From NCBI GenBank assembly GCA_963841565.1, contig CAWJCY010000005.1:1-32000 (forward strand): 32,000 bases of DNA, given 5' to 3'. This document shows positions 2,956 to 24,629 of this stretch, piece after piece. The position numbers and the translations under genes are program-made. The notes beneath the pieces were generated by a model that saw only the letters and a program-made list of their open reading frames with translations, did not search any database and had not been told where the DNA came from. Within the stretch, counting starts at the first letter, position 1. Each line of letters begins with the position of its first letter. Origin of the DNA: an uncultured Nitrososphaerales archaeon (GTDB taxonomy: Archaea > Thermoproteota > Nitrososphaeria > Nitrososphaerales > Nitrososphaeraceae).

Positions 2956-3390
2956 TTGAATATAATTATGCTGGAATGCAACAACAACTATGGAAATAAT
3001 AGTAGAAATGATTTGCGCAAAGTTTGTGAAGCGGCTTTATCTGCTAGTAGAAACGTAATATTTGCCGCTTTGGTGAATACAAACGGGATACTGATTGTTG
3101 GTAAGTATAGATGTGATCATCTTTCCAAGTTATCTAGGTCATCTTCTGAAAAGATTAGTACAGATGTATCTAAGGGTTGTGTATTCTATCTGGAACGATT
3201 GCTGCCATATTTAATGGGGGCAGGGAGGATAAACAATAAAACTAACAAGAATGGCGGGAATCTAACAAAAAGGGATGGAGAACGAATAGAATTAGATCTG
3301 TTAAATGTAGATGGAAAAGTCAAGACGGCCATTACCCGGATTCCAGAACTACCAAATATGTTTTTGTGTGTCGAGTACATTTCAAGTTAA
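2956..3390 (+). CDS. hypothetical protein
   Basis: 144-aa ORF with a TTG start at 2956 and an alternative ATG at 2968. AALVNTNGILIVGKY weakly resembles roadblock/LC7-type folds, but this is not enough for a call. Confidence 0.35.
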   Translation: MNIIMLECNNNYGNNSRNDLRKVCEAALSASRNVIFAALVNTNGILIVGKYRCDHLSKLSRSSSEKISTDVSKGCVFYLERLLPYLMGAGRINNKTNKNGGNLTKRDGERIELDLLNVDGKVKTAITRIPELPNMFLCVEYISS

Positions 3391-6922: not shown

Positions 6923-7423
6923 CTAAAGGTGAGCCCTTAACATCCAGGCCATCTTCTCATGGATTTCCATCAATCCGGTTAGGAAATCGTTTGTACCAAT
7001 GTCATGATACTTTGTGTCACATATTTCGAGATCTGAACGCAGACTGCGAATAATTTGTTCGTGATCCCCTAATAATTTAGAAATCATCTTGAGGTCACCT
7101 GGATACTCTCCAGGACTCTCTTTGAGTCTGGACTCCTTGACAAATTCAGTCAATGTAGCTATTGACATTCCTCCGAGTGTCCTTGTACGCTCGGCTACGT
7201 CATCAATCAATTCATCAAGTTTTTCATATTGTTCTTGAAAAAATTTATGTCTATCGTTAAAATGAGATCCTGTCACATTCCAATGATAATTTCTTGTTTT
7301 AGTATACAAGATATACTCGTCTGCAAGTAATGTGTTTAGAATCTTGACAACACCTTCTCTATTATGTTGAGAAATTCCTATATTCAAGTCACTCTTTGTC
7401 TTTTCAAGCGTTCTTAATGTCAT
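6923..7423 (-). CDS. dps: Dps family DNA-protection / mini-ferritin protein
   Basis: 166 aa. LNTLLADEYILYTKTRNYHWNVTGSHFNDRHKFFQEQYEKLDELIDDVAERTRTLGG matches the Dps ferroxidase-centre helices (HW...H...D..E). Confidence 0.9.
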   Translation of the reverse strand: MTLRTLEKTKSDLNIGISQHNREGVVKILNTLLADEYILYTKTRNYHWNVTGSHFNDRHKFFQEQYEKLDELIDDVAERTRTLGGMSIATLTEFVKESRLKESPGEYPGDLKMISKLLGDHEQIIRSLRSDLEICDTKYHDIGTNDFLTGLMEIHEKMAWMLRAHL

Positions 7424-7682: not shown

Positions 7683-7979
7683 GTGATGAAACAACTAAGA
7701 CAACAACATAGAAGCCGGTCGGAGATAATAGCGTCTATTCTTGCAACAACAAACGGCAATCAGATAAGGCAAACCGAAATACTCTACAAAACATATCTCT
7801 CACATACGCTCTTGAAGGACTATTTGTTGTTCTTAATTGAGAATGATTTAATAGAATATGCTACTGGAGATAGAACATTTAAAACCACTGAGAAAGGTAT
7901 GCGTTTTCTTAGAATGTACTCACAGATGAATGACCTGATGATTTTGAAGCAGCAGCAAGTAGTGCAATTTACTAAATGA
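7683..7979 (+). CDS. small winged-helix transcriptional regulator (archaeal HTH_45-like)
   Basis: 98 aa. SEIIASILATT...IRQTEILYKTYLSHTLLKDYLLFLIENDLIEY...RTFKTTEKGMRFLRMYSQMNDL is a clear paralogue of ORF 14023..14292. The gene is divergent from dps. Confidence 0.7.
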   Translation: MMKQLRQQHRSRSEIIASILATTNGNQIRQTEILYKTYLSHTLLKDYLLFLIENDLIEYATGDRTFKTTEKGMRFLRMYSQMNDLMILKQQQVVQFTK

Positions 7980-8153: not shown

Positions 8154-8618
8154 GTGGGCTCACTAATGGATAAATTTTCAGAATCCCGAAGCAATAGTTT
8201 ACGGAATCGAGGGGTCACGAAATTGCTATTGGTCAATAATGATTTTGAACCTGCGATGAGCTTGAAGAAAGGTTTAGAGGATTATGGCTTCAAAGTTTAT
8301 TATTTTGCGAATGTACTCGCAGCACTCCACGATATTGAGAAAAGCAAAAAGGTCAATTACGATATGATATTATTTGACATCAATCCATCTAATACTGAAT
8401 ATTTACTCTTTGCCAAACAAATTAGGGAATTGAGCCACACCGTGAAGATGTTTCTTATGAGTTCGCGTGAAATTGAAGACAAGGTTATACGTAACGCTAT
8501 GACGGCAGGTATTAATGAGATAATAATGAAACCAATTTCAGCCGAAAACCTCAACATAGTGTTACAAGACTACATCGATGGAATCAACAATCCACTAGAT
8601 TCAGCACTTAAACTTTGA
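8154..8618 (+). CDS. single-domain response regulator (CheY-like receiver)
   Basis: 154 aa. It has a beta1 acidic site (LLLVNNDFE), a phospho-acceptor Asp context (DMILFDINPS), a Ser/Thr position (FLMSSRE) and a conserved Lys (IIMKPIS). There is no output domain and no kinase in the window. The start is GTG at 8154, with an alternative ATG at 8166. Confidence 0.75.
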   Translation: MGSLMDKFSESRSNSLRNRGVTKLLLVNNDFEPAMSLKKGLEDYGFKVYYFANVLAALHDIEKSKKVNYDMILFDINPSNTEYLLFAKQIRELSHTVKMFLMSSREIEDKVIRNAMTAGINEIIMKPISAENLNIVLQDYIDGINNPLDSALKL

Positions 8619-8888: not shown

Positions 8889-9125
8889 GTGCAAATGTCC
8901 AGGAATACTCGAATTGAAATCTTGTCGAACAAACCCATCCCCTTGCAAGGGATGGTTGAAGAGGATGTATTTGTAGATCAACAGCCTAATCCTCAGACAT
9001 TAATTTCGCAACTGGATATTGAAATTGAATGTCCTCGATGTAATGAGGTCTTGGAGCTTTATTCCGATTTTGATAGATTATATTATTGTTGCGAGAGTTG
9101 TAGTTTGCATCTGCACGTTGGATAA
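8889..9125 (+). CDS. small zinc-ribbon protein
   Basis: 78 aa with CPRC...CCESC (two CxxC knuckles about 15 residues apart). The start is GTG at 8889, with an alternative ATG at 8894. Confidence 0.5.
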   Translation: MQMSRNTRIEILSNKPIPLQGMVEEDVFVDQQPNPQTLISQLDIEIECPRCNEVLELYSDFDRLYYCCESCSLHLHVG

Positions 9126-9443
9126 AGAGCCGAAAACTTTGATATATGCAGCATTCCAGTCGTAAAATCTTCTACTCTACAAAACACGCTCGTTTAACTG
9201 CCGCATATGAAATTAATTGCAGCAAATAATCATTTCACTACCCCACAACATGCCTAATTTCCTCGGAAGCTCGGAGATCCAGTGCTGCACTCGAACTAAG
9301 CCTCCATACTGGATAAATATAATTATGCATATATTCCTTCCAGATAATCTCATAAATGATTTTAGGATAGAATTACTATATAGAAAAATCTGTTAAATGT
9401 ACTAAAAAAAACGTATTATCTTATCTTAGAGACATTCTTAATG

Positions 9444-9459
9444 CTTAAATAATATATAT
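9444..9459 (+). promoter_or_regulatory. TATA-like box for the repeat-protein gene
   Basis: cttaaataatatatat is centred about 25 nt upstream of the ATG at 9477, which is leaderless spacing. Confidence 0.3.
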
Positions 9460-9476
9460 CGTTCTTGCAGACGAAG

Positions 9477-10703
9477 ATGAAATCTGAATTCGCATTAATA
9501 TTATCGGCGATACTAGTTTTAGGTGGATTGGTACCTGGACTTACTTTGGGTTCACAGATAGCTTTTGCAGACGACGCTAGTGGCGGCGGTGAAAGTAGCG
9601 GCGGTGAAAGTAGCGGCGGTGAAAGTAGCGGCGGTGAAAGTAGCGGCGGTGAAAGTAGCGGCGGTGAAAGTAGCGGCGGTGAAAGTAGCGGCGGTGAAAG
9701 TAGCGGCGGTGAAAGTAGCGGCGGTGAAAGTAGCGGCGGTGAAAGTAGCGGCGGTGAAAGTAGCGGCGGTGAAAGTAGCGGCGGTGAAAGTAGCGGCGGT
9801 GAAAGTAGCATTAGTAGTAGCAGCGGCGATGGTGGCAGCACTGGCAGCACTTTACAAAGTAGTAGTACGAACTTTAGGGGCAGCGCTAGCAGCAGCGCTT
9901 TCGGTCTTCCTCCTCCAGGCGGCAGTAACGAAGATTTTGACTGGAAGTATGGCGATCCTGACTGGAAGTATGGCGATCCTGACTGGAAGTATGACGATCA
10001 TGACTGGAAGGACAAGGGTCATGATGACAAACACAAGGACAAGGGTCATGATGACAAACACAAGGACAAGGGTCATGATGACAAACACAAGGACAAGGGT
10101 CATGATGACAAACACAAGGACAAGGGTCATGACAAGGATTGCAAGGACAAGCGTCATGACAAGGATTGCAAGGACAAGCGTCATGACAAGGATAAGAATA
10201 AGCACCATGACAAGGATCATAAGAAAGATCACAATGGCGACGACAACAATAGTCATCATAACAACAATCATGACAAGAATTGCGACTATGACAAGAATGG
10301 CGACTATGAAAAGAATGGCGGCTATGACAAGGATGGAGACTATTGCGAATGCGACTACGACAAGGATGGCGACTACGACAAGGATGGCGACTACGACAAA
10401 TATGGTGACTATTGCGGTGATGGCGACCACAATGGCGACAACAATGGCGACCACAATGGCGACAACAATGGCGACCACAATGGCGACCACAACGGTGACG
10501 GTTCGGAAGCAGCTGCAGTAACGACAGCTAGCGGTACTGCATCATCATCTTCAGTTGCAGCTGGCGGTGTGGTAATTCAGGATGCGACTATTGGCAACGG
10601 AGCAGCATCAGCAGCAACTGACGGCATAGGAATAACACCAACGGGAATAACACCAACAGGAATAACACCTGCAAACGGCGGTTTAGCAGGAGCATTGTCC
10701 TAA
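9477..10703 (+). CDS. secreted, intrinsically repetitive Gly/Ser/Asp/His/Lys-rich protein (six tandem-repeat modules)
   Basis: The ATG at 9477 gives MKSEFALILSAILVLGGLVPGLTLGSQIAFA|DD, a Sec-type signal peptide with an AxA site. All repeat units are multiples of 3 nt (15, 21, 27, 18, 12/24 and 15) and stay in one frame. The tracked ORF begins at an upstream TTG at 9465. Confidence 0.7.
   Translation: MKSEFALILSAILVLGGLVPGLTLGSQIAFADDASGGGESSGGESSGGESSGGESSGGESSGGESSGGESSGGESSGGESSGGESSGGESSGGESSGGESSGGESSGGESSISSSSGDGGSTGSTLQSSSTNFRGSASSSAFGLPPPGGSNEDFDWKYGDPDWKYGDPDWKYDDHDWKDKGHDDKHKDKGHDDKHKDKGHDDKHKDKGHDDKHKDKGHDKDCKDKRHDKDCKDKRHDKDKNKHHDKDHKKDHNGDDNNSHHNNNHDKNCDYDKNGDYEKNGGYDKDGDYCECDYDKDGDYDKDGDYDKYGDYCGDGDHNGDNNGDHNGDNNGDHNGDHNGDGSEAAAVTTASGTASSSSVAAGGVVIQDATIGNGAASAATDGIGITPTGITPTGITPANGGLAGALS
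9585..9809 (+). repeat. 15 perfect tandem copies of a 15-bp unit (ggcggtgaaagtagc, encoding GGESS)
   Basis: Read directly from the sequence. Lines 9601, 9661 and 9721 are identical, and 225 nt / 15 = 15 units with no substitutions. Confidence 0.97.
9939..10001 (+). repeat. 21-bp tandem repeat x3 (DWKYGDP / DWKYDDH)
   Basis: gactggaagtatggcgatcct occurs twice, followed by gactggaagtatgacgatcat. Confidence 0.9.
10008..10196 (+). repeat. 27-bp tandem repeat x7 (4 perfect KDKGHDDKH units, then KDKGHDKDC, KDKRHDKDC and KDKRHDKDK variants)
   Basis: aaggacaagggtcatgatgacaaacac is repeated perfectly 4 times from 10008, followed by three diverged units. Confidence 0.9.
10272..10412 (+). repeat. degenerate 18-bp repeats encoding D-K-[DN]-G-D-Y
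   Basis: DKNCDYDKNGDYEKNGGYDKDGDYCECDYDKDGDYDKDGDYDKYGDY. The unit gacaaggatggcgactac recurs with variants. Confidence 0.8.
10419..10502 (+). repeat. 12/24-bp repeats encoding GDHNGDNN
   Basis: aatggcgaccacaatggcgacaac is repeated, giving the peptide GDGDHNGDNNGDHNGDNNGDHNGDHNGDG. Confidence 0.85.
10629..10673 (+). repeat. 15-bp tandem repeat x3 (GITPT, GITPT, GITPA)
   Basis: ggaataacaccaacg / ggaataacaccaaca / ggaataacacctgca lie near the C-terminus. Confidence 0.85.
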
Positions 10704-11291
10704 TACTCCCTTTTACTTTTTTAACATGCTTCGAATATGCAAGAATTACGACCGTCCCTATAGACTGACCTATTGAATCGAATACGAATAATAGTCCAAT
10801 AGTATGATATTTTCGCTATGAACTCGTACTAAATATCACTTCTGCAAAACTTTGAGCCTTGACGACATGAAGATAGAATCTCTGACAGCTAAGTGCATCA
10901 TCCCGAGTTAAAGTCTTGAAATGCAATTCGAGCTCCAACCTTTTAGTCAATGAGACAACGAGACGATATTCTAATTATTCAGAGCTTACAATGGTTAGGC
11001 GTACAATTTCTGACACTCATGACAAGAGTAAGTAGGTCTACCCACATTACTCGTAATTCAGGTGTCTTCACTGCCGAAAAATACCCTTTAAATTAAATAT
11101 TCAAATTCGGTCAACAGGCAACAATATAAGGCCACATTAATTTAGTTGGGTAAATGCCAGGATTTTTTGGCGTAAATTGTCGAGGTTTAATTTACTGAAA
11201 AAACATCAAGACCAATTTTCTTAGACTAGCCGTGACCACCATGCCATTTGATAGGATTATCTATATATTGATTAAAGTTTAATCTCATTTC

Positions 11292-12629
11292 ATGGGTACC
11301 CAAATGAGTTCTGCTAGGCAGGGTCAAGCCACAGAAGAAATGATCCGTGTTTCTAAAGATGAAGGGATCAACCTAGAGACCCTAAAACACGGGGTGGCTA
11401 AAGGGAGTATAATTATTCCTAGAAATCTCGCCAGGAAGCAAGAGAATGTTCGGGTTGTTGGAATAGGAAATGGGTTAAAAACTAAAGTGAATGTGAATAT
11501 TGGAACTTCAACTTTATATCAAAATCTCGATGAGGAAATAACCAAAGCAAGAATTGCTGTAGATCACGGTGCAGATACCATAATGGATTTGTCAGATGGG
11601 GGCGACCTTGATCTAATAAGAGAAAAATTATTGGAAGAGGCACTGATAACTTTTGGCTCAGTACCGATTTATCAAGCATATGCATATGGCGTTCAGAAAT
11701 ACAAAAACCCACTTAATATTACCGAGGATGATTTTTTGAAGGCATTTGAAAAGAACGCTAAAGACGGAGTTGATTATACCACAATTCATTCTGGTATAAC
11801 TAAGGAGCTCGCAAAACGAGTATTGGAAGTCAGAAGACATGGCGGGATAGTTTCTAAAGGAGGTACCATAACAGCAGCATGGATGCTAAAGTATGAAAAA
11901 GAAAACCCTTATTTCAAACACTTCGACTATCTCTGTGAAATTGCCAGAGAGTATGATGTTACGTTCAGCTTGGGAGATGCATTACGTCCTGGATCGATAC
12001 TGGATTCCCATGATGAATTGCAGGTTGAAGAGATGTTGAATGTATCAAGACTTACAAAGAAAGCTCATGAACAAGATATTCAAGTTATGGTAGAAGGTCC
12101 GGGTCACGTTCCGCTGAATGAAGTTGCTGCAAATGTACGACTCGCGAAATCGCTCATAGGGAATGTTCCATATTATGTTCTAGGTCCTTTAGTAACAGAC
12201 ATAGCAGCCGGGTACGACCACATTGCTAGCGCGATTGGAGCCGCTGTTTCGGCCGCTGAAGGTGTTGACCTCCTTTGCTATTTGACACCCGCAGAGCACT
12301 TGGGACTGCCTACAGCCGACGAAGTAAAGGAAGGTCTAATAGCGTATAGAATTGCCGCACATGCAGGGGATCTTGTCAGGCTGCGTGAAAAAGTGATCAA
12401 TTGGGATAAAGAGATAACTGAGGCACGACGAACTCTGAATTGGGAAAAGCAGATATCACTGTCTATAGATCCTGAGCAGGCTGCCAAGATACATTACCGA
12501 CGGCAAGGCCAGCTAGATGGCAACAATGTGCCTTGTACTATGTGCGGAGGAGCTTGTGTATACATAATGTTACCACAACAACGTAGGAATGAAGAAGCAA
12601 TTGAGAAAAAAACTGGCAATGATGACTAG
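11292..12629 (+). CDS. thiC: phosphomethylpyrimidine synthase ThiC (radical-SAM thiamine pyrimidine synthase)
   Basis: 445 aa. DTIMDLS, GIVSKGG, MVEGPGHVP, YVLGPLVTDIAAGYDHI and the C-terminal CTMCGGAC (CX2CX4C Fe-S motif) are all ThiC hallmarks. Confidence 0.95.
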   Translation: MGTQMSSARQGQATEEMIRVSKDEGINLETLKHGVAKGSIIIPRNLARKQENVRVVGIGNGLKTKVNVNIGTSTLYQNLDEEITKARIAVDHGADTIMDLSDGGDLDLIREKLLEEALITFGSVPIYQAYAYGVQKYKNPLNITEDDFLKAFEKNAKDGVDYTTIHSGITKELAKRVLEVRRHGGIVSKGGTITAAWMLKYEKENPYFKHFDYLCEIAREYDVTFSLGDALRPGSILDSHDELQVEEMLNVSRLTKKAHEQDIQVMVEGPGHVPLNEVAANVRLAKSLIGNVPYYVLGPLVTDIAAGYDHIASAIGAAVSAAEGVDLLCYLTPAEHLGLPTADEVKEGLIAYRIAAHAGDLVRLREKVINWDKEITEARRTLNWEKQISLSIDPEQAAKIHYRRQGQLDGNNVPCTMCGGACVYIMLPQQRRNEEAIEKKTGNDD

Positions 12630-14411: not shown

Positions 14412-15581
14412 TCATTCGTGGGGTAGAAAAAATTGGATTACTATACTTACGATATACATTGATAACAACATCATACCAGTCTTTAATCCTATTTCTTTTT
14501 TGAACATTGGTATTAAAGCTATTATCGTGACCACAGTCACAAGTACTACTTGAAATGCGAGTACTGGAGTCAATTCAATCACAGTAAAAAATCCTGCATG
14601 ATACATTGCTCCAAAAACCGCTACTGCGAGAAGCAACGTATTGTTTAGTATTTTAGATCCTAACACGTTGGCTATTGCAATGGATGCACCTAATGCGCCC
14701 TTTCTTGCAAGTATCATCAATGATATTTTCTCAGGCATTTCTCCGGCAATAGGGCTAATTACTACTGCAAGAATTATCGCAGAAACTCCTATATCAACTG
14801 AAAATCCTTCAAGTGCATGGATGAAAGGGCCTGCTCCTACTACGATTCCGATTGTTCCTGCCACAAATACCAATACGGATCTTAGTGTACGTCTTCTTAA
14901 TCTCGCAGTGTCGCTACTATTTCCGCTAAAGTCTTGCTTTTCCCTAATCGAATCCTTCGTACTACTTTTTAAAACCTCCTCTTGCTGCTTACTAATCTCA
15001 TTCGACATTCCTCTAGCTCTGACCAATGTATCATTTCTTTCTGATCTCATTTCAAACAGGGCTACTATAAGATACGCAATGAAGAATCCGGTGAAGATCA
15101 AACCATCCAAGAAATTATATCCATCAATGAACAGTAGTGCACTCACAATAGCAGTAACAAGCAGAAAAATCTTGTCTAGTTTGAAAGTACTGACATTGAT
15201 TCCCTTCAATGGAGATTTGGATATCCGGGTTGTTGCAATGATTAGCATAAGAGATAACCCCAGCGTCATCATCAATAGATTGCTTCCTAATCCTGCTCCT
15301 ATGGCTACTCCGTAAGATCCGGCTGCGGCAGCATAAATAACGATTGCAATTTCAGGGAGGGTCGTTGCCACACTTAAGATCGTCCTTCCTACAAACTTAG
15401 CACCGTATCTAGCTGAAAGGTGTTCGGCCCCATAGGAGAGAGCCCAGCTTGCAACGATTAATTCTGCTAACCAAATGACCATCGAAGTTAGATTTTCGGA
15501 ACTCAAAATAAGGCTCGCTATCTGATCTAAGTGATAATACCAATGTAATATATTGATTTCTTGTTCCATATGATCAAGCAT
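14412..15581 (-). CDS. Ca2+/cation antiporter (CaCA family, Na+/Ca2+ exchanger-type membrane protein)
   Basis: 389 aa and polytopic. The alpha-1 repeat is GRTILSVATTLPEIAIVIYAAAAG...GSNLL and the alpha-2 repeat is ISPIAGEMPEKISLMILARKG...GSKILN, separated by a charged cytoplasmic loop. Confidence 0.8.
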   Translation of the reverse strand: MLDHMEQEINILHWYYHLDQIASLILSSENLTSMVIWLAELIVASWALSYGAEHLSARYGAKFVGRTILSVATTLPEIAIVIYAAAAGSYGVAIGAGLGSNLLMMTLGLSLMLIIATTRISKSPLKGINVSTFKLDKIFLLVTAIVSALLFIDGYNFLDGLIFTGFFIAYLIVALFEMRSERNDTLVRARGMSNEISKQQEEVLKSSTKDSIREKQDFSGNSSDTARLRRRTLRSVLVFVAGTIGIVVGAGPFIHALEGFSVDIGVSAIILAVVISPIAGEMPEKISLMILARKGALGASIAIANVLGSKILNNTLLLAVAVFGAMYHAGFFTVIELTPVLAFQVVLVTVVTIIALIPMFKKEIGLKTGMMLLSMYIVSIVIQFFLPHE

Positions 15582-15968
15582 TATCTAAATAGCTATGATC
15601 GTAACGATGGAGCCTTAATAGTGCAACATATCTGGTGTCGTGATTTATACATAAAGTACCGAATTATTGAGCCTTCTCTCCCCGTATGAATTATTTTGGT
15701 ATTGAGCTGGGTATACTTATCTACTTTATACGAGCCATGCAAGTACTACGTGATTACCACACTAAGTAACAGAACCTTGAATTAGAACCCAGGACAGCTT
15801 CCCTCTTAAGTCTTCGGATCGATCTCTAGCAAGACACCGAACGTGGCAATTTCTTGCTAGATGCTGTAGGATAGTGACTTAAACTTCAAATTATAACTCT
15901 TCACATGCATATTTCATGCCAAAATTGACCTAGTACTGTCTAACCTTTTTATTACCTAAGGGTATAAA

Positions 15969-17138
15969 GTGCCATATATGCCAAATAAGGTTTGCGTCCT
16001 CGGTGCAGGTAGTACGAAATATGGTAAGCTAAATGAAAGTGTTGTAGAATTAGCGTTGGATGCCTCAAAGGATGCTATCACTTCTGCCGGTATAACCCCA
16101 AAGGAGATACAGTCAGGCTACATTTCAAATGTCTTTGGAGTTTCTGACAAGCAGGTTCATATGGCACCTGTTATAATGAGCAACTTAGGCATTCCTTATA
16201 CTCCAGGCCTAACCATAGAATCAGCATGTGGATCTGGCTCTGTAATGTTACGAGAAGCATATGCTAATGTTGCTGCAGGTTTTTATGACTGTATTTTGGC
16301 GGTAGGTGTTGAGAAAATCACTCAGGTAGGAACAGTTCAGAGTACTACACTTTTTTCATATTGTTCAGATTTCTTTTATGAGGGAGGAAATGGAGCTTCT
16401 TTTCCCGGGCTTTTCGCATCTATCGCGAGGGCTTATCTTACTAGGTACAAAGCAACAGAAGAAGATTTAGCTTATGTGGCGGTCAAGAATCATGAGAATG
16501 GAATACTTAACCCCAAAGCACATGTTCGTAAAATAATAACGATCGAAGATGTGATGCAATCTCCTGTCGTGGCATCTCCGCTAAAACTTTACGATTGTTG
16601 TCCATTCTCCGATGGCGCCTCCGCACTGATTCTTTGTAGCGAAGAATTTGCGAAGAAAAAGGGCAGAAGCTATATAGAAATAATTGGATCAGGCCGTGGT
16701 GCCTCCCCAGCCGCAGTACAATCGCGCGAGGACATTACAACTATACCCAGTACCGTAAATGCTGCCCGACAGGCGTATGAAATGGCAAAGATAACACCCA
16801 AAGATGTAGATTTTGCTGAAGTACATGATTGCTTTACCATTGCCGAAGTCATAGATACTGAGGACTTAGGCTTTTTTAGGAAAGGCGAAGCTGCAGAAGC
16901 CATAAGGTCTGGCGCCACAAAGAGGACAGGAGAGATTCCAATTAATCCATCAGGAGGATTAAAATCTAAAGGTCATCCGATCGGAGCTACAGGGATTGGT
17001 CAAGTTGTTGAAGTATTTGAACAATTTACAGGGAAGGCAGGAGAGCGAACAATACACGACGCAGAAATCGCAATTACCCATAACTTTGGTGCCACTGGGG
17101 CAAGTGCGACAGTACACGTTTTCAAGAAAGTTAAATGA
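15969..17138 (+). CDS. archaeal thiolase (acetyl-CoA C-acetyltransferase / acetoacetyl-CoA thiolase)
   Basis: 389 aa. It has the active-site Cys context IESACGSGS, then EVHDCFT, then NPSGGLKSKGHPIGATG and the C-terminal NFGATGAS. The start is GTG at 15969, with an alternative ATG at 15978. Confidence 0.9.
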   Translation: MPYMPNKVCVLGAGSTKYGKLNESVVELALDASKDAITSAGITPKEIQSGYISNVFGVSDKQVHMAPVIMSNLGIPYTPGLTIESACGSGSVMLREAYANVAAGFYDCILAVGVEKITQVGTVQSTTLFSYCSDFFYEGGNGASFPGLFASIARAYLTRYKATEEDLAYVAVKNHENGILNPKAHVRKIITIEDVMQSPVVASPLKLYDCCPFSDGASALILCSEEFAKKKGRSYIEIIGSGRGASPAAVQSREDITTIPSTVNAARQAYEMAKITPKDVDFAEVHDCFTIAEVIDTEDLGFFRKGEAAEAIRSGATKRTGEIPINPSGGLKSKGHPIGATGIGQVVEVFEQFTGKAGERTIHDAEIAITHNFGATGASATVHVFKKVK

Positions 17139-18456: not shown

Positions 18457-20574
18457 ATGGAACAGTTGAGTCATGATTATTCATTTCAAACAGAGAACAA
18501 AAGGTATGGGATTCTCGAATCTGCCTCAAAACGAGTGCGGATGATCTTCTCTGTTATGGCCAGTCCTAACAGAATTGATATACTTAGAATATTAAATTCA
18601 AAGGGGCCACTTACCTACTCTGAATTGAAATCTCTTGCCGGGTTCAAATCGAAAAAGGAATCTGGAAAATTTGCCTATCATTTAAGGAAACTGCTTAGGC
18701 AGTCGTTAGTTGCTTTGAATAAAGGAGAACGAAGATATACAATAACTAACTTGGGGAAATTAGTCTTGAGCCTTGCAAGACAAATTGAAGAAAGGTCAAT
18801 AGTTGAAAGTGGCAAAATGTATGTTAGGACAAGCCATAATTCGATTGAGGAGTTTAATTCTCACAAGATAATCCAATCTATCGTTAGGGAGGCTGGAATG
18901 CCTTTAGAGCAAGCGCAGAAAATCACGGAGGAAGTGGAGAACAAGATTTACAAGTTCCAGGCTGCCTATCTTACATCTTCTCTGGTTCGTGAAACAGTCA
19001 ATTCCGTGCTTATAGAGCATGGCTTTGAAGAGTATCGGAGTAGAATGTCCAGATTGGGCATGCCTAGTTCTGATGTTCTCGATCTGATAAACAATGCGGA
19101 AGGAATTACAAATGGAATAGAGGGAATTATCAATAACGCTTCCATGTCAGTGTTTTCGGAGCACCTATTATTGAATTCTCTACCCAAGGACATTTCAGAT
19201 ATGCATCTAGGTGGCGAGTTAAACATCTCAAATCCTGGGGTATGGGGGATACTTCCTGATGTGGTCTTCCTAAACATCAATGAATTTTCTGAAGGATTAC
19301 AAAAATTAAACGGCAAGTATTTTAACGTATCAAGGGTACGCTTCGATGAAAAGTCCAAGTTTTCGGCAGCATTGCAATTACTTTTGGCTTTGATGAGCAG
19401 GGAGGCATCATCGGAGGTAGTTCTTGAAGGCATCACAGACTTTCTCTTGAATGACACTTTGGATTGTGAGGATATCGCGTCATCTTTTGCAAAGGCTCTT
19501 ATCTCGTCATCTGCTACAAGCTCCTATTCTGAAGGTCTACCTTCCTTTACGATTCTATTGCCTGTAAGTACTCTTGATAAAAAGACATTTGGGGCCTTAC
19601 TTGATGGCTACACAAAGTATACAGACTTAACTCCTTTACCAAGGGTTGGTCTGGCATTAAATTACAATGGAGATTCCAATACGTTGGGAGAAGACTCGCA
19701 GACGATATCATCTGTAGTTAGGTCGGGAGGTAAGATAGTCATCATGCAAAATGGAAAGCGAACGAGTAATGGCATTCGAAAATCATTAGATGGTAAGGAT
19801 ACAGGGAGCGTTGCATCTTTACAGTCGATGTCGATTAATCTTCCTAGACTCGCGTATCAGTCAAACAAAGATGAAACATATTTCAGGGCAAAACTCGCGC
19901 TAACAATAAAACCCGCATTGGAGGCGATGTATATAAGAAAGAAGAATATCCTGAGCACAATCAGAAAGGGGCTATGCCCGGTCATGGGAAGTGCTAATTT
20001 TGAACATTTCGGCACAACTAACATAATTCTCAATCTCACCGGCCTAAAGGAATCAGTATATGATATCTTGGGATATAATCACAATTCTGCCGGAGATGAT
20101 GTCCTGAGAAAAGTACTGAAGACCTCAGGTGATGTAGCTTTAGATCATGGGAGGCAAATGGATAGTGAATCGGTAGGTATCTCGATGATAGATGATGACA
20201 GTAGCATAAGATTTTCAACCTTGGATTCAGAAAAATATGGTAGGACTCTACTATCAACTGGGGCCGAGTCGGCAAAGCACTACTCTCAAGGGATTACTGT
20301 GAACGGAAAGGAACTTTTGTTACAACCTCAAAAAGGATTAGAAGAATGTATTTCCATTGATAGTCTCCTAAGGGGTGGGTTGTCGACGTCAATAGATCTA
20401 ACTGATATTTCGGCTCAGGATGAATTGAATAAGGCAATAGCCATCAGCACTGGACTCACATTCTTCCGGCCATTCGTTCGATCCCTGATCTGTAGAGGGT
20501 GTAGCAGACGCTATGTTGGGTCAGATGTTAAGAAATGCGAGACCTGTGGATCAGTATATTTAAGGACAGGTTGA
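18457..20574 (+). CDS. wHTH (ArsR-like) + ATP-cone + degenerate NrdD-like (class III RNR-like) + C-terminal Zn-ribbon fusion protein
   Basis: 705 aa. Residues 25-110 (ASPNRIDILRILNSKGPLTYSELKSLAG...FAYHLRKLLRQSLV...YTITNLG) are ArsR-type wHTH. Residues 121-197 (MYVRTSHNSIEEFNSHKIIQSIVREAGMPLEQAQKITEEVENKIY...LTSSLVRETVNSVLIEHGFEEYRSR) have the ATP-cone pattern. The body carries NrdD-like stretches LPKDISDMHLGGELNISNPG, SMSINLPRLAYQ and NLTGLKESVYDILG. The C-terminus is CRGC-x11-CETC, and the protein ends 8 residues later with no RxxGY glycyl-radical motif. Confidence 0.65.
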   Translation: MEQLSHDYSFQTENKRYGILESASKRVRMIFSVMASPNRIDILRILNSKGPLTYSELKSLAGFKSKKESGKFAYHLRKLLRQSLVALNKGERRYTITNLGKLVLSLARQIEERSIVESGKMYVRTSHNSIEEFNSHKIIQSIVREAGMPLEQAQKITEEVENKIYKFQAAYLTSSLVRETVNSVLIEHGFEEYRSRMSRLGMPSSDVLDLINNAEGITNGIEGIINNASMSVFSEHLLLNSLPKDISDMHLGGELNISNPGVWGILPDVVFLNINEFSEGLQKLNGKYFNVSRVRFDEKSKFSAALQLLLALMSREASSEVVLEGITDFLLNDTLDCEDIASSFAKALISSSATSSYSEGLPSFTILLPVSTLDKKTFGALLDGYTKYTDLTPLPRVGLALNYNGDSNTLGEDSQTISSVVRSGGKIVIMQNGKRTSNGIRKSLDGKDTGSVASLQSMSINLPRLAYQSNKDETYFRAKLALTIKPALEAMYIRKKNILSTIRKGLCPVMGSANFEHFGTTNIILNLTGLKESVYDILGYNHNSAGDDVLRKVLKTSGDVALDHGRQMDSESVGISMIDDDSSIRFSTLDSEKYGRTLLSTGAESAKHYSQGITVNGKELLLQPQKGLEECISIDSLLRGGLSTSIDLTDISAQDELNKAIAISTGLTFFRPFVRSLICRGCSRRYVGSDVKKCETCGSVYLRTG

Positions 20575-21905: not shown

Positions 21906-24629
21906 ATGGCGGGGGTTACCGAATTTAATTCTAAAGAAAATTTGATTTCACAGATAAGGAAACGGGATGCAAGAATAGTTTCTTTTGTTCATACGAAGAT
22001 CTCCAATGCAATCTATAAGGCGTTGGTTGCAACTAGGAAACCTGATTACGAGTTAGCTGAGAACTTGGCTAACAAAGTTCTCCAGAAAATGGTTGATCAT
22101 GGCTATGGAGCGTCGGAAAAGGAAGCAATTCCGAGTGTGGAAGACGTTCAGGATATGGTAGAATCAATACTCATCGAAGAAGGTTTGTCCGAGACAGCAA
22201 AGGCCTACATCCTCTACAGACACGAACGAAGAAAAATTAGAGATGAAAAAATGAAAATCCTGAACAAGAAAGATCTAGATGAAATCGATAAATCATTCAG
22301 TGTTAATTCACTAAGAGTCTTAGCGTCTCGATATCTGTTAAGAGATGATAGCAACGAGATAATAGAAGGACCACGCCAAATGTTTGAAAGGGTTGCCATT
22401 CTAGCAACTCTGCCTGACCTGGTACACGATTCGAGTATATTTGACATCGAATCTAAACATAGTAATTACACAGATGAAGCAGAGAAGTACTACGATAAAA
22501 TCGATGATTTCCATCTCAAGCTTAAGATTGGTGAATTCTATCTCAATAAGTACCATTTTGAATCTCTTATTCGTCTTTACATAGATCTCGCTAAAGACAG
22601 ACACATGAAATGTAGTTTCAAAGACTTGCTAAGGCTAATCGCTGAAGGAAAGATGTCTGCTTACGAAAGCAGAATTCGCGAATACTATAATTTAATGGTA
22701 TCAAAGGACTTTTTGCCTAATACACCAACTTTAATGAACGCGGGCGCGAGATTAGGACAACTTTCAGCCTGCTTTGTCCTCGACATGCCAGATGATATGA
22801 ACCAGATCATGAAGTCGTCTACCGATGCGGCGATGATCTTCAAATCAGGAGGCGGAGTAGGCATCAATTATTCTGATTTGAGGCCAGAGGGTGATATCGT
22901 AGCATCCACATCTGGAGTAGCATCTGGACCTTCATCTTTCATGAGAATAATTGACACAATCACGGATGTTGTGAAACAGGGAGGAAAGAGACGTGGTGCA
23001 AATATGGGTATTCTGGAAGCATGGCATCCGGATATTGAAAAGTTCGTGACTGCAAAGACAAAACCGGGAGTATTTGAAAACTTTAATGTGAGCGTTGGTA
23101 TCTCTAATGATTTCTGGAAATCTGTTATTGATAAACAGAACCATAAGTACATGTTAAGAAATCCGAGAACCCAAGAGCCCATTAAAAACATTGATTCGCA
23201 ACAGCTATTGGATCTGATAGCATTTAGTGCATGGAAGAGTGCAGAACCAGGTGTAATTTTCTTTGATAATATCAACAAATATAATCCATGTATGGAAGCC
23301 AAGGGTGGACCATTGCGTGCAACAAATCCTTGTGGAGAACAGTCTCTTTATCCATATGAATCATGCAATTTGGGTTCGATAAATCTGGCAAATTTTGTTA
23401 AGAGGAAAGCTGATGGAATGTACGAATTTGATTGGCAACGTTATGAACAAGCGGTACGATTGTCAACCAGATTGCTAGATAATGTAATTGATGCTAACAA
23501 GTATCCTGTAGACGAGATCGATAAAAATACTAAACTTACGCGTAGAATCGGTCTCGGTATTATGGGCATAGCCGACCTACTATTCTTGTTAAGAATACCA
23601 TACATATCTAAAGAAGGGTATGAGTTCATGAACAAGTTAGCGGAGGCGATCTCATATTACAGCATGGAGGAGAGCGTTGCTCTGGCTAAAGTACGAGGGC
23701 CATTTCCACTGTTTTCAAGAACTGATTATGTCAAAGGTAAGATCCCGGTAGCCGGATACTATGAAATACCGAAGGAGAATCATTCATTTGACTGGGACTC
23801 ATTAATCATGAAAATCCGAAAATACGGTATAAGAAACTCATGGACAACAACGATTGCACCTACTGGAACGTTATCTATGATAGCAGATACTTCTAACGGT
23901 ATTGAACCCATTTTCGCTTTAGTTTTCGAAAAGAGAGTAACAGTTGGCAGATTTTTCTATACAAACAGGGTTTTCGAAAATGTTCTAATGGCGAGCGGTC
24001 TGTACGACGACGAAATACTTACAAGAATTGCAAATAACTACGGATCTGTACGAGATATGAATGAGATTCCTCAGTGGATGCAGAAACTTTTCGTAACAGC
24101 AATTGATATTCACTGGACAGATCATCTTATGGCTCAGGCTGTGTGGCAGAAATGGATTAGTAATGCTATCGCAAAGACTATTAATATGCCTGGAGATACG
24201 ACCGCCGATGATGTGAAATCTGCATACTTGCTTGCCCATGAATTAGGATTAAAAGGTGTTACAGTTTATCGGGATGGGTCAAGACACGAGCAGGTTCTGC
24301 ACATAACAGGTGATACTGGAAAGGAAAAAAGGTTTATGGTAAATCCGAGTGCCTACGTAGCAGATTTTATTCGAGACAATATCAATGAACCATTCGTAAG
24401 GGAACAGATAGCACAAATATACCAATACACTCAGAATTTTGAGGAACCCATGACACCTCCTCGTTATGAAGAGAATCAACAGATTACTTCTGTAAAAAAA
24501 TCAAGTCTCCAATCTTCAGTTATGGAGAATTATGACAATATGTGTCCTTCCTGCAAATCAAAACTAATAGTTACAGAAGGATGTAATATGTGCATTGAGT
24601 GTGGGTTTAGTAGCTGCGGCTCGGGATGA
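21906..24629 (+). CDS. nrdJ: adenosylcobalamin-dependent (class II) ribonucleotide reductase with N-terminal ATP-cone and C-terminal Cys-rich zinc finger
   Basis: 907 aa. The ATP-cone is IRKRDARIVSFVHTKISNAIYKAL...VEDVQDMVESILIEEGLSETAKAYILYRHERR. The catalytic finger loop is TNPCGEQSLYPYESCNLGSINL, followed by TIAPTGTLS and GVTVYRDGSR. The C-terminus is CPSC...CNMCIECGFSSCG. Confidence 0.95.
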   Translation: MAGVTEFNSKENLISQIRKRDARIVSFVHTKISNAIYKALVATRKPDYELAENLANKVLQKMVDHGYGASEKEAIPSVEDVQDMVESILIEEGLSETAKAYILYRHERRKIRDEKMKILNKKDLDEIDKSFSVNSLRVLASRYLLRDDSNEIIEGPRQMFERVAILATLPDLVHDSSIFDIESKHSNYTDEAEKYYDKIDDFHLKLKIGEFYLNKYHFESLIRLYIDLAKDRHMKCSFKDLLRLIAEGKMSAYESRIREYYNLMVSKDFLPNTPTLMNAGARLGQLSACFVLDMPDDMNQIMKSSTDAAMIFKSGGGVGINYSDLRPEGDIVASTSGVASGPSSFMRIIDTITDVVKQGGKRRGANMGILEAWHPDIEKFVTAKTKPGVFENFNVSVGISNDFWKSVIDKQNHKYMLRNPRTQEPIKNIDSQQLLDLIAFSAWKSAEPGVIFFDNINKYNPCMEAKGGPLRATNPCGEQSLYPYESCNLGSINLANFVKRKADGMYEFDWQRYEQAVRLSTRLLDNVIDANKYPVDEIDKNTKLTRRIGLGIMGIADLLFLLRIPYISKEGYEFMNKLAEAISYYSMEESVALAKVRGPFPLFSRTDYVKGKIPVAGYYEIPKENHSFDWDSLIMKIRKYGIRNSWTTTIAPTGTLSMIADTSNGIEPIFALVFEKRVTVGRFFYTNRVFENVLMASGLYDDEILTRIANNYGSVRDMNEIPQWMQKLFVTAIDIHWTDHLMAQAVWQKWISNAIAKTINMPGDTTADDVKSAYLLAHELGLKGVTVYRDGSRHEQVLHITGDTGKEKRFMVNPSAYVADFIRDNINEPFVREQIAQIYQYTQNFEEPMTPPRYEENQQITSVKKSSLQSSVMENYDNMCPSCKSKLIVTEGCNMCIECGFSSCGSG

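Follow-up and report, generated by a model that had tools for sequence, protein, structure and literature searches.

A small Nitrososphaeraceae family of repeat-built, predicted secreted proteins with conserved expression and export signals and a possible role in cation or metal binding

The DNA analysed here, referred to as the window, is a stretch of 32,000 nucleotides from an uncultured Nitrososphaerales archaeon of the family Nitrososphaeraceae, an ammonia oxidiser of soil or sediment (GenBank assembly GCA_963841565.1, contig CAWJCY010000005.1, positions 1 to 32,000 of the forward strand). Between an open reading frame (ORF) resembling a Zn ribbon and the thiC gene it carries a gene for a repeat protein of 408 amino acids, which begins with a signal peptide and continues largely as short tandem repeats. 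Judging by sequence comparison, this is a genuine gene and the largest member of a small, lineage-specific Nitrososphaeraceae family, in which promoter, signal peptide and C-terminal tail appear to have been kept while the body was rebuilt repeatedly from new short repeats. The features of the gene and its immediate flanks, with the basis of each assignment, are the following.

9419..9441, + strand: conserved upstream block TCTTATCTTAGAGACATTCTTAA, 23 nt, candidate B recognition element (BRE) or regulator-binding site; comparison of loci
9445..9459, + strand: TATA-box-like element TTAAATAATATATAT, centre about 28 nt before the ATG; sequence, conserved in relatives
9477..10703, + strand: coding sequence (CDS) of the 408-aa repeat protein, stop codon included; ORF listing and sequence
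9477..9569, + strand: signal peptide MKSEFALILSAILVLGGLVPGLTLGSQIAFA, 31 aa, predicted signal peptidase I site AFA-DD; hydropathy and relatives
9579..9809, + strand: (GGESS)x15, 15 bp x15.4, 99% matches, acidic flexible spacer with net charge -15; Tandem Repeats Finder (TRF)
9810..9937, + strand: non-repetitive Ser/Gly/Thr-rich linker, from residue 112 (ISSSSGDGGSTGSTLQSSSTNFRGSASSSAFGLPPPGGSNEDF) up to the DWKYGDP array; sequence
9938..10010, + strand: (DWKYGDP)x3.5, 21 bp, 96% matches; TRF
10008..10193, + strand: His/Asp/Lys 9-mer array, KDKGHDDKH followed by the Cys-bearing KDKGHDKDC / KDKRHDKDC, 27 bp; TRF
10194..10269, + strand: degenerate His/Asp/Lys/Asn stretch (DKNKHHDKDHKKDHNGDDNNSHHNNNH); sequence
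10270..10427, + strand: (DK[DN]GDY)x8, 18 bp, with 4 Cys; TRF (x8.1 at 10270-10412)
10420..10492, + strand: (GDHN/GDNN)x6, 12 bp x6.1, 93%, an unbroken run of [DN]x[DN]x[DN]G motifs; TRF
10503..10700, + strand: Ala/Ser/Gly/Thr-rich C-terminal tail, conserved in the relatives P0043 and P0044; sequence
10563..10700, + strand: conserved non-repeat tail motif GGVVIQDATIG..SAATDGIGITPTGITP..GGLAGALS; comparison with relatives
10628..10669, + strand: (GITPT)x2.8, 15 bp; TRF
10711..10722, + strand: oligo-T tract (TTTTACTTTTTT), 8 nt past the stop codon, like an archaeal intrinsic terminator; sequence

The ORF runs uninterrupted from 9465/9477 to 10703 on the forward strand and yields 408 aa counted from the ATG at 9477. 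This ATG is preferred to the TTG at 9465 chosen by the ORF lister, because the relatives described below align from a conserved MK(S/T) start and one of them has a 3-nt deletion between the TTG and the ATG. Inside the ORF, TRF detects tandem repeats of six families, all in frame, whose periods (15, 21, 27, 18, 12 and 15 bp) are multiples of 3 throughout, as the initial annotation of this DNA had read them, and the 32-kb window holds no other array of comparable size. That annotation had also described almost the entire protein as repeats. The repeats are real, but the arrays account for 64% of the CDS and 70% of the mature protein, the remainder being low-complexity linker without repeats and the conserved C-terminal tail; within the linker at 9810..9937 the only TRF match is a 9-bp unit x2.1 at 9833-9851, with no large array. 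The 27-bp array, whose His/Asp/Lys 9-mer is the module type common to the whole family, falls into a perfect part (x4.6, 10008-10132) and a variant part (x2.9, 10115-10193), and the degenerate stretch behind it contains the sole N-x-S/T sequon of the protein, at residue 257.

The gene is richer in G+C than its surroundings, as had been noticed before: GC is 0.546 at 9501-10000 and 0.466 at 10001-10500, against 0.30-0.46 in the other 500-nt bins of the window and about 0.37 nearby. These raised values are due to the amino-acid composition (Gly, Asp, Ser encoded as AGY, and Ala) together with the amplified codon choices. Counts of 45 GAC to 19 GAT and of 30 AAG to 7 AAA are found in the repeat gene, which unlike its neighbours favours GGC/GGT over GGA/GGG and encodes Ser almost always as AGY; GC at third codon positions is 0.47 (9477-10700) versus 0.34 in thiC (11292-12626). 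The bias may have arisen as a founder effect when the units were amplified, or it may be tied to high expression. Concerning the number of repeat copies, three same-species metagenome contigs (L081, L090 and L095; 98.8-99.7% identical) end exactly at the borders of the repeat region, so that the copy numbers given here are those of the window alone. The stop-free repeats also give rise to phantom long ORFs in another forward frame and on the opposite strand (318 aa, 9565-10521 +; 212 aa, 9852-10490 -; 144 aa, 9416-9850 -), none of which has its own promoter, start context or conservation across species; the relatives have the same ones.

Upstream of the gene, the 18-nt core of the conserved block, TCTTANAGACATTCTTAA, is identical in 17/17 related loci and absent from the remaining 81 of the 98 loci compared, as well as from the rest of the window, the search having covered these loci and the window. 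Since the adjacent coding sequence shows a synonymous divergence of 0.4-0.6, this invariance is not neutral, and the 23-nt block at 9419-9441 looks like a dedicated regulator-binding site. It holds three TCTTA half-sites (TCTTA-TCTTA-GAGACAT-TCTTA-A). No regulon sharing the block was seen, its occurrence among the 98 loci being confined to that of the repeat gene. Shortly upstream lie a conserved HTH_45-like protein (7683-7979) and a conserved receiver-domain protein (8154-8618). Archaeal promoters obey an established rule for the spacing between TATA box and transcription start; with the centre of the TATA-like element about 28 nt before the ATG, the mRNA would therefore be leaderless or near-leaderless. 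T-runs are conserved 3' of the stop codon in L093, L095 and L092, and because such a conserved oligo-T tract follows the stop codon, the gene is suggested to be a monocistronic unit. A scan for bacterial sigma-70 promoters and hairpin terminators gave matches inside the repeats, which are not meaningful for an archaeon and were discarded.

The 17 related loci come from three genomes (L001-L003), from a metagenome scan with the upstream block (11 loci) and from protein searches, exhaustive or word-indexed (L093, L094 and L096). In L001-L003 a relative sits at the same site, between the Zn-ribbon ORF and thiC, and shares the promoter block and a clearly homologous signal peptide. A wholly different mature part follows, made up of (GGSAxAAAAASSD)x2, (HHDDDDKKR, periodic Cys)xN and (AAAAAAAGNS)xN, in proteins of 105-166 aa. 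Ten relatives in all are complete (105-220 aa), and their copy numbers vary from 2 to 10 for the His/Asp units and from 1 to 5 for the Ala-rich ones. Five features define the family, all of them present in the window: the block TCTTANAGACATTCTTAA with its TATA box; a signal peptide matching MK(S/T)..AL.L.AIL.LG.L(V/I)PG....(I/L/V)(A/T)(F/L)A; repeats of the His/Asp/Lys type, 9-10 residues long; a tail rich in Ala/Ser/Gly; and the position between Zn-ribbon ORF and thiC. A further member, P0001, is encoded at a different locus, next to an aquaporin gene, and shows a signal peptide ending in VAFA before DD, then NHGNGDD x2, DDHKKHH x3 and an Ala-rich tail.

Although the bodies of these proteins differ, their chemistry recurs. 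The His/Asp/Lys units found among the members are KDKGHDDKH, HHDDDDKKR, DRDHDKHDGK (in the divergent relative L086), DDHKKHH and DHKNKHHD; His makes up 4-9.5% and Asp 17-24% of the relatives, and their tails are Ala/Ser/Gly-rich, as in (AAAAAAAGNS)n. A close relative at the L093/L094 locus bears (GGGSSE)n, with an 18-bp unit, in place of (GGESS)n behind the signal peptide. The tail region 10503..10700 is 98% identical in P0043 and 66% in P0044, the three sequences sharing the C-terminal consensus VV(I/V)QDATIG..SAATDGIGITPTGITP..GGLA.ALS, and against L093 the tail has a ratio of nonsynonymous to synonymous substitutions (dN/dS) of 0.38 over 61 codons. The stretch NYDKDGKYDRDGNYDKDGNW in P0044/L093 is homologous to the DK[DN]GDY block. 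Between the two subfamilies the mature regions defy alignment, and the common denominator of the family, as far as its sequences tell, is a His/Asp/Lys-rich unit of 9-10 residues flanked by Gly/Ser/Ala-rich spacers.

That the region codes for protein and is no satellite, as proposed from the outset, follows from the conserved promoter block and signal peptide at 17 loci, from a dN/dS of 0.2-0.4 outside the repeats and from the intact frame of all ten complete relatives. The initial annotation had regarded common frame-disrupting variants as a sign of a satellite. Two lesions occur, namely a 1-nt deletion in the signal peptide of L087 and an in-frame TAA at codon 58 of L096, after which the frame continues with recognisable modules. 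Both are probably errors or rare variants, because, of these two contigs from one lineage, each is free of the lesion seen in the other. L096 (L096:10001-10360, 10706-12044, 15290-16451) is a 102-kb contig from a related species in which thiC and thiolase, too, are each broken into two gene calls, which points to an indel-prone, long-read type of assembly rather than to real pseudogenes.

A homologue lacking the signal peptide had been named as a further objection, and formally there is one, though it is no more than a truncated remnant next to a copy that bears the signal. In two sister samples (L093:487-1326, L094:175-1032) a 103-aa ORF directly after the Zn-ribbon ORF, with neither promoter nor signal peptide, comprises a DK.G.Y block and the conserved tail. 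It is followed by about 240 bp homologous to window positions 10703-10880 and then by a second promoter and signal-peptide copy with (GGGSSE)n running off the contig. This arrangement looks like a tandem duplicate whose first copy has lost its 5' half; a mis-assembly present in both sister samples is less likely. Beyond the closest clade the synteny upstream of thiC is lost, which makes the absence of the gene from that place in distant Nitrososphaeria uninformative.

Concerning export, the signal peptide consists of MK, then FALILSAILVLGGLVPGL, then QIAFA before DD. A rule-based check finds the short positive n-region, the h-region of 10-20 hydrophobic residues and the small residues at -3/-1 that characterise Sec substrates of signal peptidase I, in keeping with the earlier reading of a Sec-type signal cleaved after AFA. 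Residues 5-22 form the only hydrophobic stretch of the protein (Kyte-Doolittle peak 2.28 at residue 6, 19-residue window), the cleavage pattern A-x-A before DD, or F-A before QE, is conserved in the aligned relatives, and the signal peptide shows a dN/dS of 0.22-0.35 between the repeat gene and its relatives at a synonymous divergence of 0.4-0.6. Residues 1-35 contain no RR (Tat), no Cys (lipobox) and no KG/RG (class III, pilin-type), and NCBIfam has no match to such signals. From this we infer export by Sec and cleavage after AFA31, releasing a mature protein of 377 residues. At the other end, an NCBIfam scan for archaeosortase-type C-terminal sorting signals (PGF-CTERM, PEF-CTERM and similar) was empty, and there is no C-terminal transmembrane anchor, the Kyte-Doolittle maximum after residue 40 being 0.89 and the protein ending in GGLAGALS.

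The mature protein (377 aa, pI 4.6) carries a net charge of -42 and has a grand average of hydropathy (GRAVY) of -1.58. Its composition is Gly 20% (19.9%), Asp 17%, Ser 14%, Lys 9.5%, His 6%, Asn 6% and ILVFMW together 5.8%, with 23 His and 6 Cys in total. Charge is distributed unevenly, (GGESS)15 contributing -15, the His/Asp/Lys block +3, the DKDGDY block -12 and the GDHN block -7. Read in tandem, DK[DN]GDY yields overlapping DxDxDG motifs (positions 270, 293 and 299); residues 270-342 hold 10 matches to the relaxed form [DN]x[DN]x[DN]G, where 0.83 are expected and where none of 5000 composition-preserving shuffles reached 10. Two matches are strict DxDxDG, and there is one xxDxDGxxCE. Pfam searches of the whole protein and of three sub-segments, including residues 263-342, gave no Excalibur (PF05901), EF-hand or TSP3 match at E<=10, and the RTX nonapeptide (GGxGxDxUx) is not present (GG.G.D count 0).

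A single-sequence AlphaFold2 model has a mean predicted local distance difference test (pLDDT) score of 39 and no secondary structure besides the signal-peptide helix; hence the mature protein is predicted to be fully disordered. The absence of a globular domain, an anchor or a sorting signal, as first described, thus agrees with the empty Pfam, NCBIfam and PDB searches, the pLDDT of 39 and the hydropathy below 0.9 after residue 40. Hydrophilins, which are LEA-like (late embryogenesis abundant-like), are defined by more than 6% Gly and a mean hydrophilicity above 1 (GRAVY < -1). With 19.9% Gly and a GRAVY of -1.58 the protein falls within this definition, which describes a compositional class and not a homologous family.

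Searches in Pfam, NCBIfam and the PDB returned no real family match. The Pfam TrAA12 match (19 bits, cut-off 30.9) lies on a low-complexity region, recurs on P0001 and was rejected as compositional; apart from a spurious low-complexity VHL match no PDB chain appeared at E<=1. An exact-sequence look-up retrieved no identical record for the repeat protein or for ThiC, and a word-indexed homology search with the full protein gave nothing at E<=0.01. An exhaustive phmmer search produced 655 matches, nearly all on residues 35-130; on reading, these proved to be G/S/E/T linkers of unrelated proteins and were rejected as homologues, the only true relatives being P0043 and P0044. A search with a profile of the N-terminal signal peptide (A5) added only four truncated gene calls of the same family, and the literature searched describes no counterpart in archaea or, more narrowly, in ammonia-oxidising archaea (AOA). 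The earlier statement that no characterised family has this architecture consequently holds, yet the protein is not an orphan singleton, since a small Nitrososphaeraceae family exists.

The neighbours of the repeat gene are housekeeping genes. They encode a major facilitator superfamily (MFS) transporter, Dps, the HTH_45-like regulator, the receiver-domain protein, the small CxxC...CxxC ORF and ThiC, and further a Na+/Ca2+ exchanger, thiolase, CdvB/Snf7, two ribonucleotide-reductase-like proteins and Cdc48. ThiC (11292-12629) is 92-93% identical to that of three Nitrososphaeraceae metagenome-assembled genomes (MAGs) and about 75-85% identical to that of other Nitrososphaeria. The window has no tRNA genes and no Rfam matches. 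The ORF immediately upstream of the repeat gene (78 aa, 8889-9125) ends in CPRCNEVLELYSDFDRLYYCCESCSLHLHVG, its two CxxC pairs giving it the look of a Zn ribbon. Neither Pfam nor NCBIfam has a match for it, and it is kept at this place in L001-L003 (66-69% identity) and in L093/L094. Elsewhere in the window, an intergenic 25-bp tandem repeat x3.2 (TATAACATTCAATTGAAACTAATAA, 89% matches) at 2860-2939, just upstream of an ORF without Pfam match (2956-3390), may be an array of regulatory sites. In a 705-aa protein (18457-20574), HTH_20/DUF7347 is combined with an ATP-cone and with a region weakly resembling NrdD, the anaerobic ribonucleotide reductase; the protein adjoins a 907-aa ribonucleotide-reductase large subunit (21906-24629) that also has an ATP-cone. 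The architecture of the 705-aa protein recurs in L096 and is an unusual fusion for an aerobic ammonia oxidiser.

As to what the protein does, the explanation we favour, tentatively and with somewhat less than even confidence, is that of a multivalent, low-affinity, high-capacity binder of cations or metals at the envelope or outside the cell. The strongly conserved promoter would drive separate transcription, probably of a leaderless mRNA, and the product would be exported via Sec and cut after AFA31. The mature protein, devoid of fold and anchor, might then sit under or in the S-layer, or in the matrix, and buffer cations there with high capacity and low affinity. In such a scheme the His/Asp/Lys(+Cys) 9-mers would bind ions of the Cu2+/Zn2+/Ni2+ type, hard cations of the Ca2+ type would fall to the dense DxDxDG-like Asp/Asn arrays and to the (GGESS)15 polyanion, and the Gly/Ser/Ala-rich blocks would act as flexible spacers. 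Slippage or unequal recombination of units that are multiples of 3 could remodel the body of the gene quickly, so that capacity and length would vary between populations while promoter, signal peptide and tail are retained.

Three considerations lead us to favour cation or metal binding: the His+Asp(+Cys) chemistry persists across members that are otherwise unalignable; the subfamily of the window has a dense DxDxDG-like array, and such motifs bind Ca2+; and SmbP offers a precedent in an ammonia oxidiser. DxDxDG, Excalibur-like and condensed-charge motifs have been described to bind Ca2+ in disordered proteins (PMC8391695). SmbP of Nitrosomonas europaea is a periplasmic, His- and acidic-rich protein that binds Cu, Mn, Zn and Ni (PMC10893511), and AOA are described as strongly Cu-dependent (PMC7785015). 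Their negatively charged envelope is reported to enrich cations, an S-layer sieve with a proposed ammonium enrichment having been put forward for N. maritimus (PMC11153153).

Several observations weigh against this explanation. The His/Asp/Lys block is charge-balanced (net +3, pI 8.5), and its Lys would disfavour cation binding; His, at only 6%, stays below the level of classic His-rich metal binders; and no Pfam metal- or Ca-binding domain is matched even at E<=10. No metal transporter shares an operon with the gene; Dps (6923-7423, opposite strand) and the Na+/Ca2+ exchanger (14412-15581) lie close by, but as separate transcription units. It looks dispensable, given the frameshift or stop codon in one lineage and the truncated copy in another, and a Cu-limitation study of N. 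viennensis mentions no such protein. Conservation at the level of composition, finally, fits non-specific polyelectrolyte roles equally well.

Such roles form the chief alternative, which we consider rather doubtful: a polyelectrolyte or hydrophilin of envelope or matrix with no specific metal sites, an exported polymer of negative charge that would retain water and might fill or coat the cell's surroundings, acting as spacer or matrix in aggregates or biofilms, in desiccation protection, as a pH buffer through its His, or as a Donnan trap raising NH4+ near the membrane. Hydropathy and Gly content within the hydrophilin range, the net charge of -42, the predicted full disorder and a selection that appears to target composition instead of sequence all speak for it. 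The poly-Ala/Gly tails (AAAAAAAGNS)n of the relatives resemble self-associating structural repeats, and KKHHHDDDDD with an A/S/G tail also ends MG2-like secreted proteins of the clade, suggesting a module for envelope association; the proposal that the AOA S-layer enriches ammonium through negative charge (PMC11153153) accords with it too. Conservation of His, Cys and Lys in every member, though, is more than a pure polyanion would require, and the ordered DxDxDG-like periodicity goes beyond bulk charge in its specificity; there is no recognisable anchor or S-layer-binding domain, and a biofilm study of AOA mentions no such protein. A narrower form of the cation-binding proposal, quite unlikely as it stands, would make the His/Asp/Lys(+Cys) repeats with the Ala/Ser/Gly tail a Nitrososphaeraceae-specific envelope module, a Cu2+ reservoir (or NH4+/Ca2+ concentrator) beside the Cu-dependent ammonia-oxidation machinery; this archaeal, disordered counterpart of SmbP and of the cation-sieving S-layer would be tuned in capacity by repeat number and governed by its dedicated conserved regulator site.

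We deem it unlikely that the gene is a dispensable, drifting, lineage-specific ORF, possibly young, whose body is given over to micro- and minisatellite expansion and is held open, without any selection for its product, by units that are multiples of 3, with marginal function at most. The occurrence in a narrow clade only, with synteny upstream of thiC lost beyond it, the near-perfect arrays (99-100% identity) that imply very recent expansion, the unalignable mature regions of the two subfamilies, the L087 frameshift, the L096 stop and the 5'-truncated L093/L094 copy, together with frames that are open on both strands across the repeats, would all suit it. Against drift stand the promoter block, invariant over 17 loci despite a proportion of synonymous differences (pS) of 0.4-0.6, purifying selection on signal peptide and tail, and the H/D/K theme in every member, even in P0001 at its different locus; the two lesions are mutually exclusive, and with thiC and thiolase split in the L096 assembly as well, they probably reflect errors or rare variants. 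It is very improbable that the gene is a contingency locus for a variable surface protein, with repeat turnover altering an exposed epitope or a receptor-masking polymer in a conflict with viruses or grazers. Copy number and repeat type do differ between close relatives under fixed expression signals, and one relative shows tandem duplication or truncation; yet no anchor would retain the protein at the surface, the context of housekeeping genes (thiC, Dps, MFS, ribonucleotide reductase, Cdc48, CdvB) is neither one of defence nor of mobile elements, composition is conserved and not diversified, and slippage of multiple-of-3 units cannot switch the gene on or off. We would be surprised, lastly, if the six-family architecture were partly an assembly artefact of collapsed, expanded or chimeric repeats around a simpler real gene. 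The central part (about 9690-10566) is known from the window alone, the contigs L081, L090 and L095 break at the repeat edges, and the relatives are far shorter (105-220 aa). Both gene ends are nevertheless confirmed by independent contigs at 98.8-99.7% identity, the DK.G.Y block with the C-terminal tail by a different species (P0044/L093) and (GGGSSE)n behind a homologous signal peptide by the L093/L094 species; nothing interrupts the ORF, and unique sequence joins each array to the next.

In soil AOA little is understood of the acquisition and buffering of Cu or of the concentration of cations at the surface, and the majority of their secreted proteins lack characterisation. Should the protein be an envelope buffer for metals or other cations, it would give a handle on copper or ammonium handling in the clade that drives soil nitrification, and an archaeal example of a fully disordered binding polymer tunable by its repeats; a merely drifting, dispensable ORF would be of little consequence. 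The gene is in any case useful for studying how low-complexity secreted proteins evolve, with expression and export signals frozen and a body rebuilt from new repeats.

Among known systems, SmbP is built of 7-residue repeats. Like the repeat protein, for which export is predicted, it is exported, rich in His and acidic residues, made of short repeats and found in an ammonia oxidiser (Barney et al. 2004, cited in PMC10893511). SmbP is bacterial, whereas the present protein is archaeal, has units of 4-9 residues and far more Lys, Gly and Ser, and is predicted to be disordered; the resemblance would be a functional analogy only, not homology. The Excalibur consensus (DxDxDGxxCE) is fitted by GYDKDGDYCE at 9 of 10 positions, and Excalibur-like motifs also occur in disordered proteins (PMC8391695). 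Here, in contrast to EF-hand and Excalibur proteins, the motifs overlap in a continuous array instead of lying in a domain, and the Glu at +12 of the EF-hand is absent. Plasmodium HRP2 (AHHAHHAAD repeats) and plasma histidine-rich glycoprotein (HRG) are secreted binders of metal or haem whose short tandem repeats abound in His, Asp and Ala, and the (AAAAAAAGNS)n and HHDDDDKKR units of the relatives recall the Ala/His/Asp composition of HRP2. Both belong to unrelated lineages without sequence homology, and His is much lower here (6%, and 4-9.5% in relatives). Starmaker and Aspein, cited in PMC8391695, are likewise Asp-rich, Ser/Gly-rich, secreted, disordered and fast-evolving proteins that bind many Ca2+ ions. 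The His/Lys-rich block of the repeat protein has no counterpart in either of them. We know of no mineralisation in Nitrososphaeraceae.

Closer to hand, Gly/Ser/Glu/Thr linkers behind signal peptides or lipoboxes (P0021, P0022, P0042 and P0135) place (GGESS)n-like arrays right after the export signal. This shows that arrays of the kind usually are, by their sequence setting, flexible spacers, and it does not amount to homology; in P0021-type proteins the linker tethers a folded domain, whereas the repeat protein has no folded cargo. The MG2/Ig-like secreted Nitrososphaeraceae proteins P0002-P0018 share with it the clade, a signal sequence, a His/Asp run (KKHHHDDDDD) and an Ala/Ser/Gly tail, so that the combination of His/Asp run and A/S/G tail recurs in secreted proteins of this clade. 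They differ in having a beta-sandwich, a well conserved (83% mean identity) rather than hypervariable tail, and another promoter and locus. This family (about 230 aa, L097:8001-8708) was recovered by a search with L084, and P0009 lies in the same MAG as L001; its beta-sandwich contains DDTDDDG upstream of KKHHHDDDDD, and AlphaFold2 gave it a mean pLDDT of 33.5 from a shallow alignment.

Orphan low-complexity secreted proteins are common. By analogy, the repeat protein would work like the polymers SmbP, HRP2/HRG, Starmaker and Aspein while being a member of none of these families; what distinguishes it is the clean evolutionary pattern of frozen signals and rebuilt body, combined with a plausible link to metals or other cations in nitrifying archaea.

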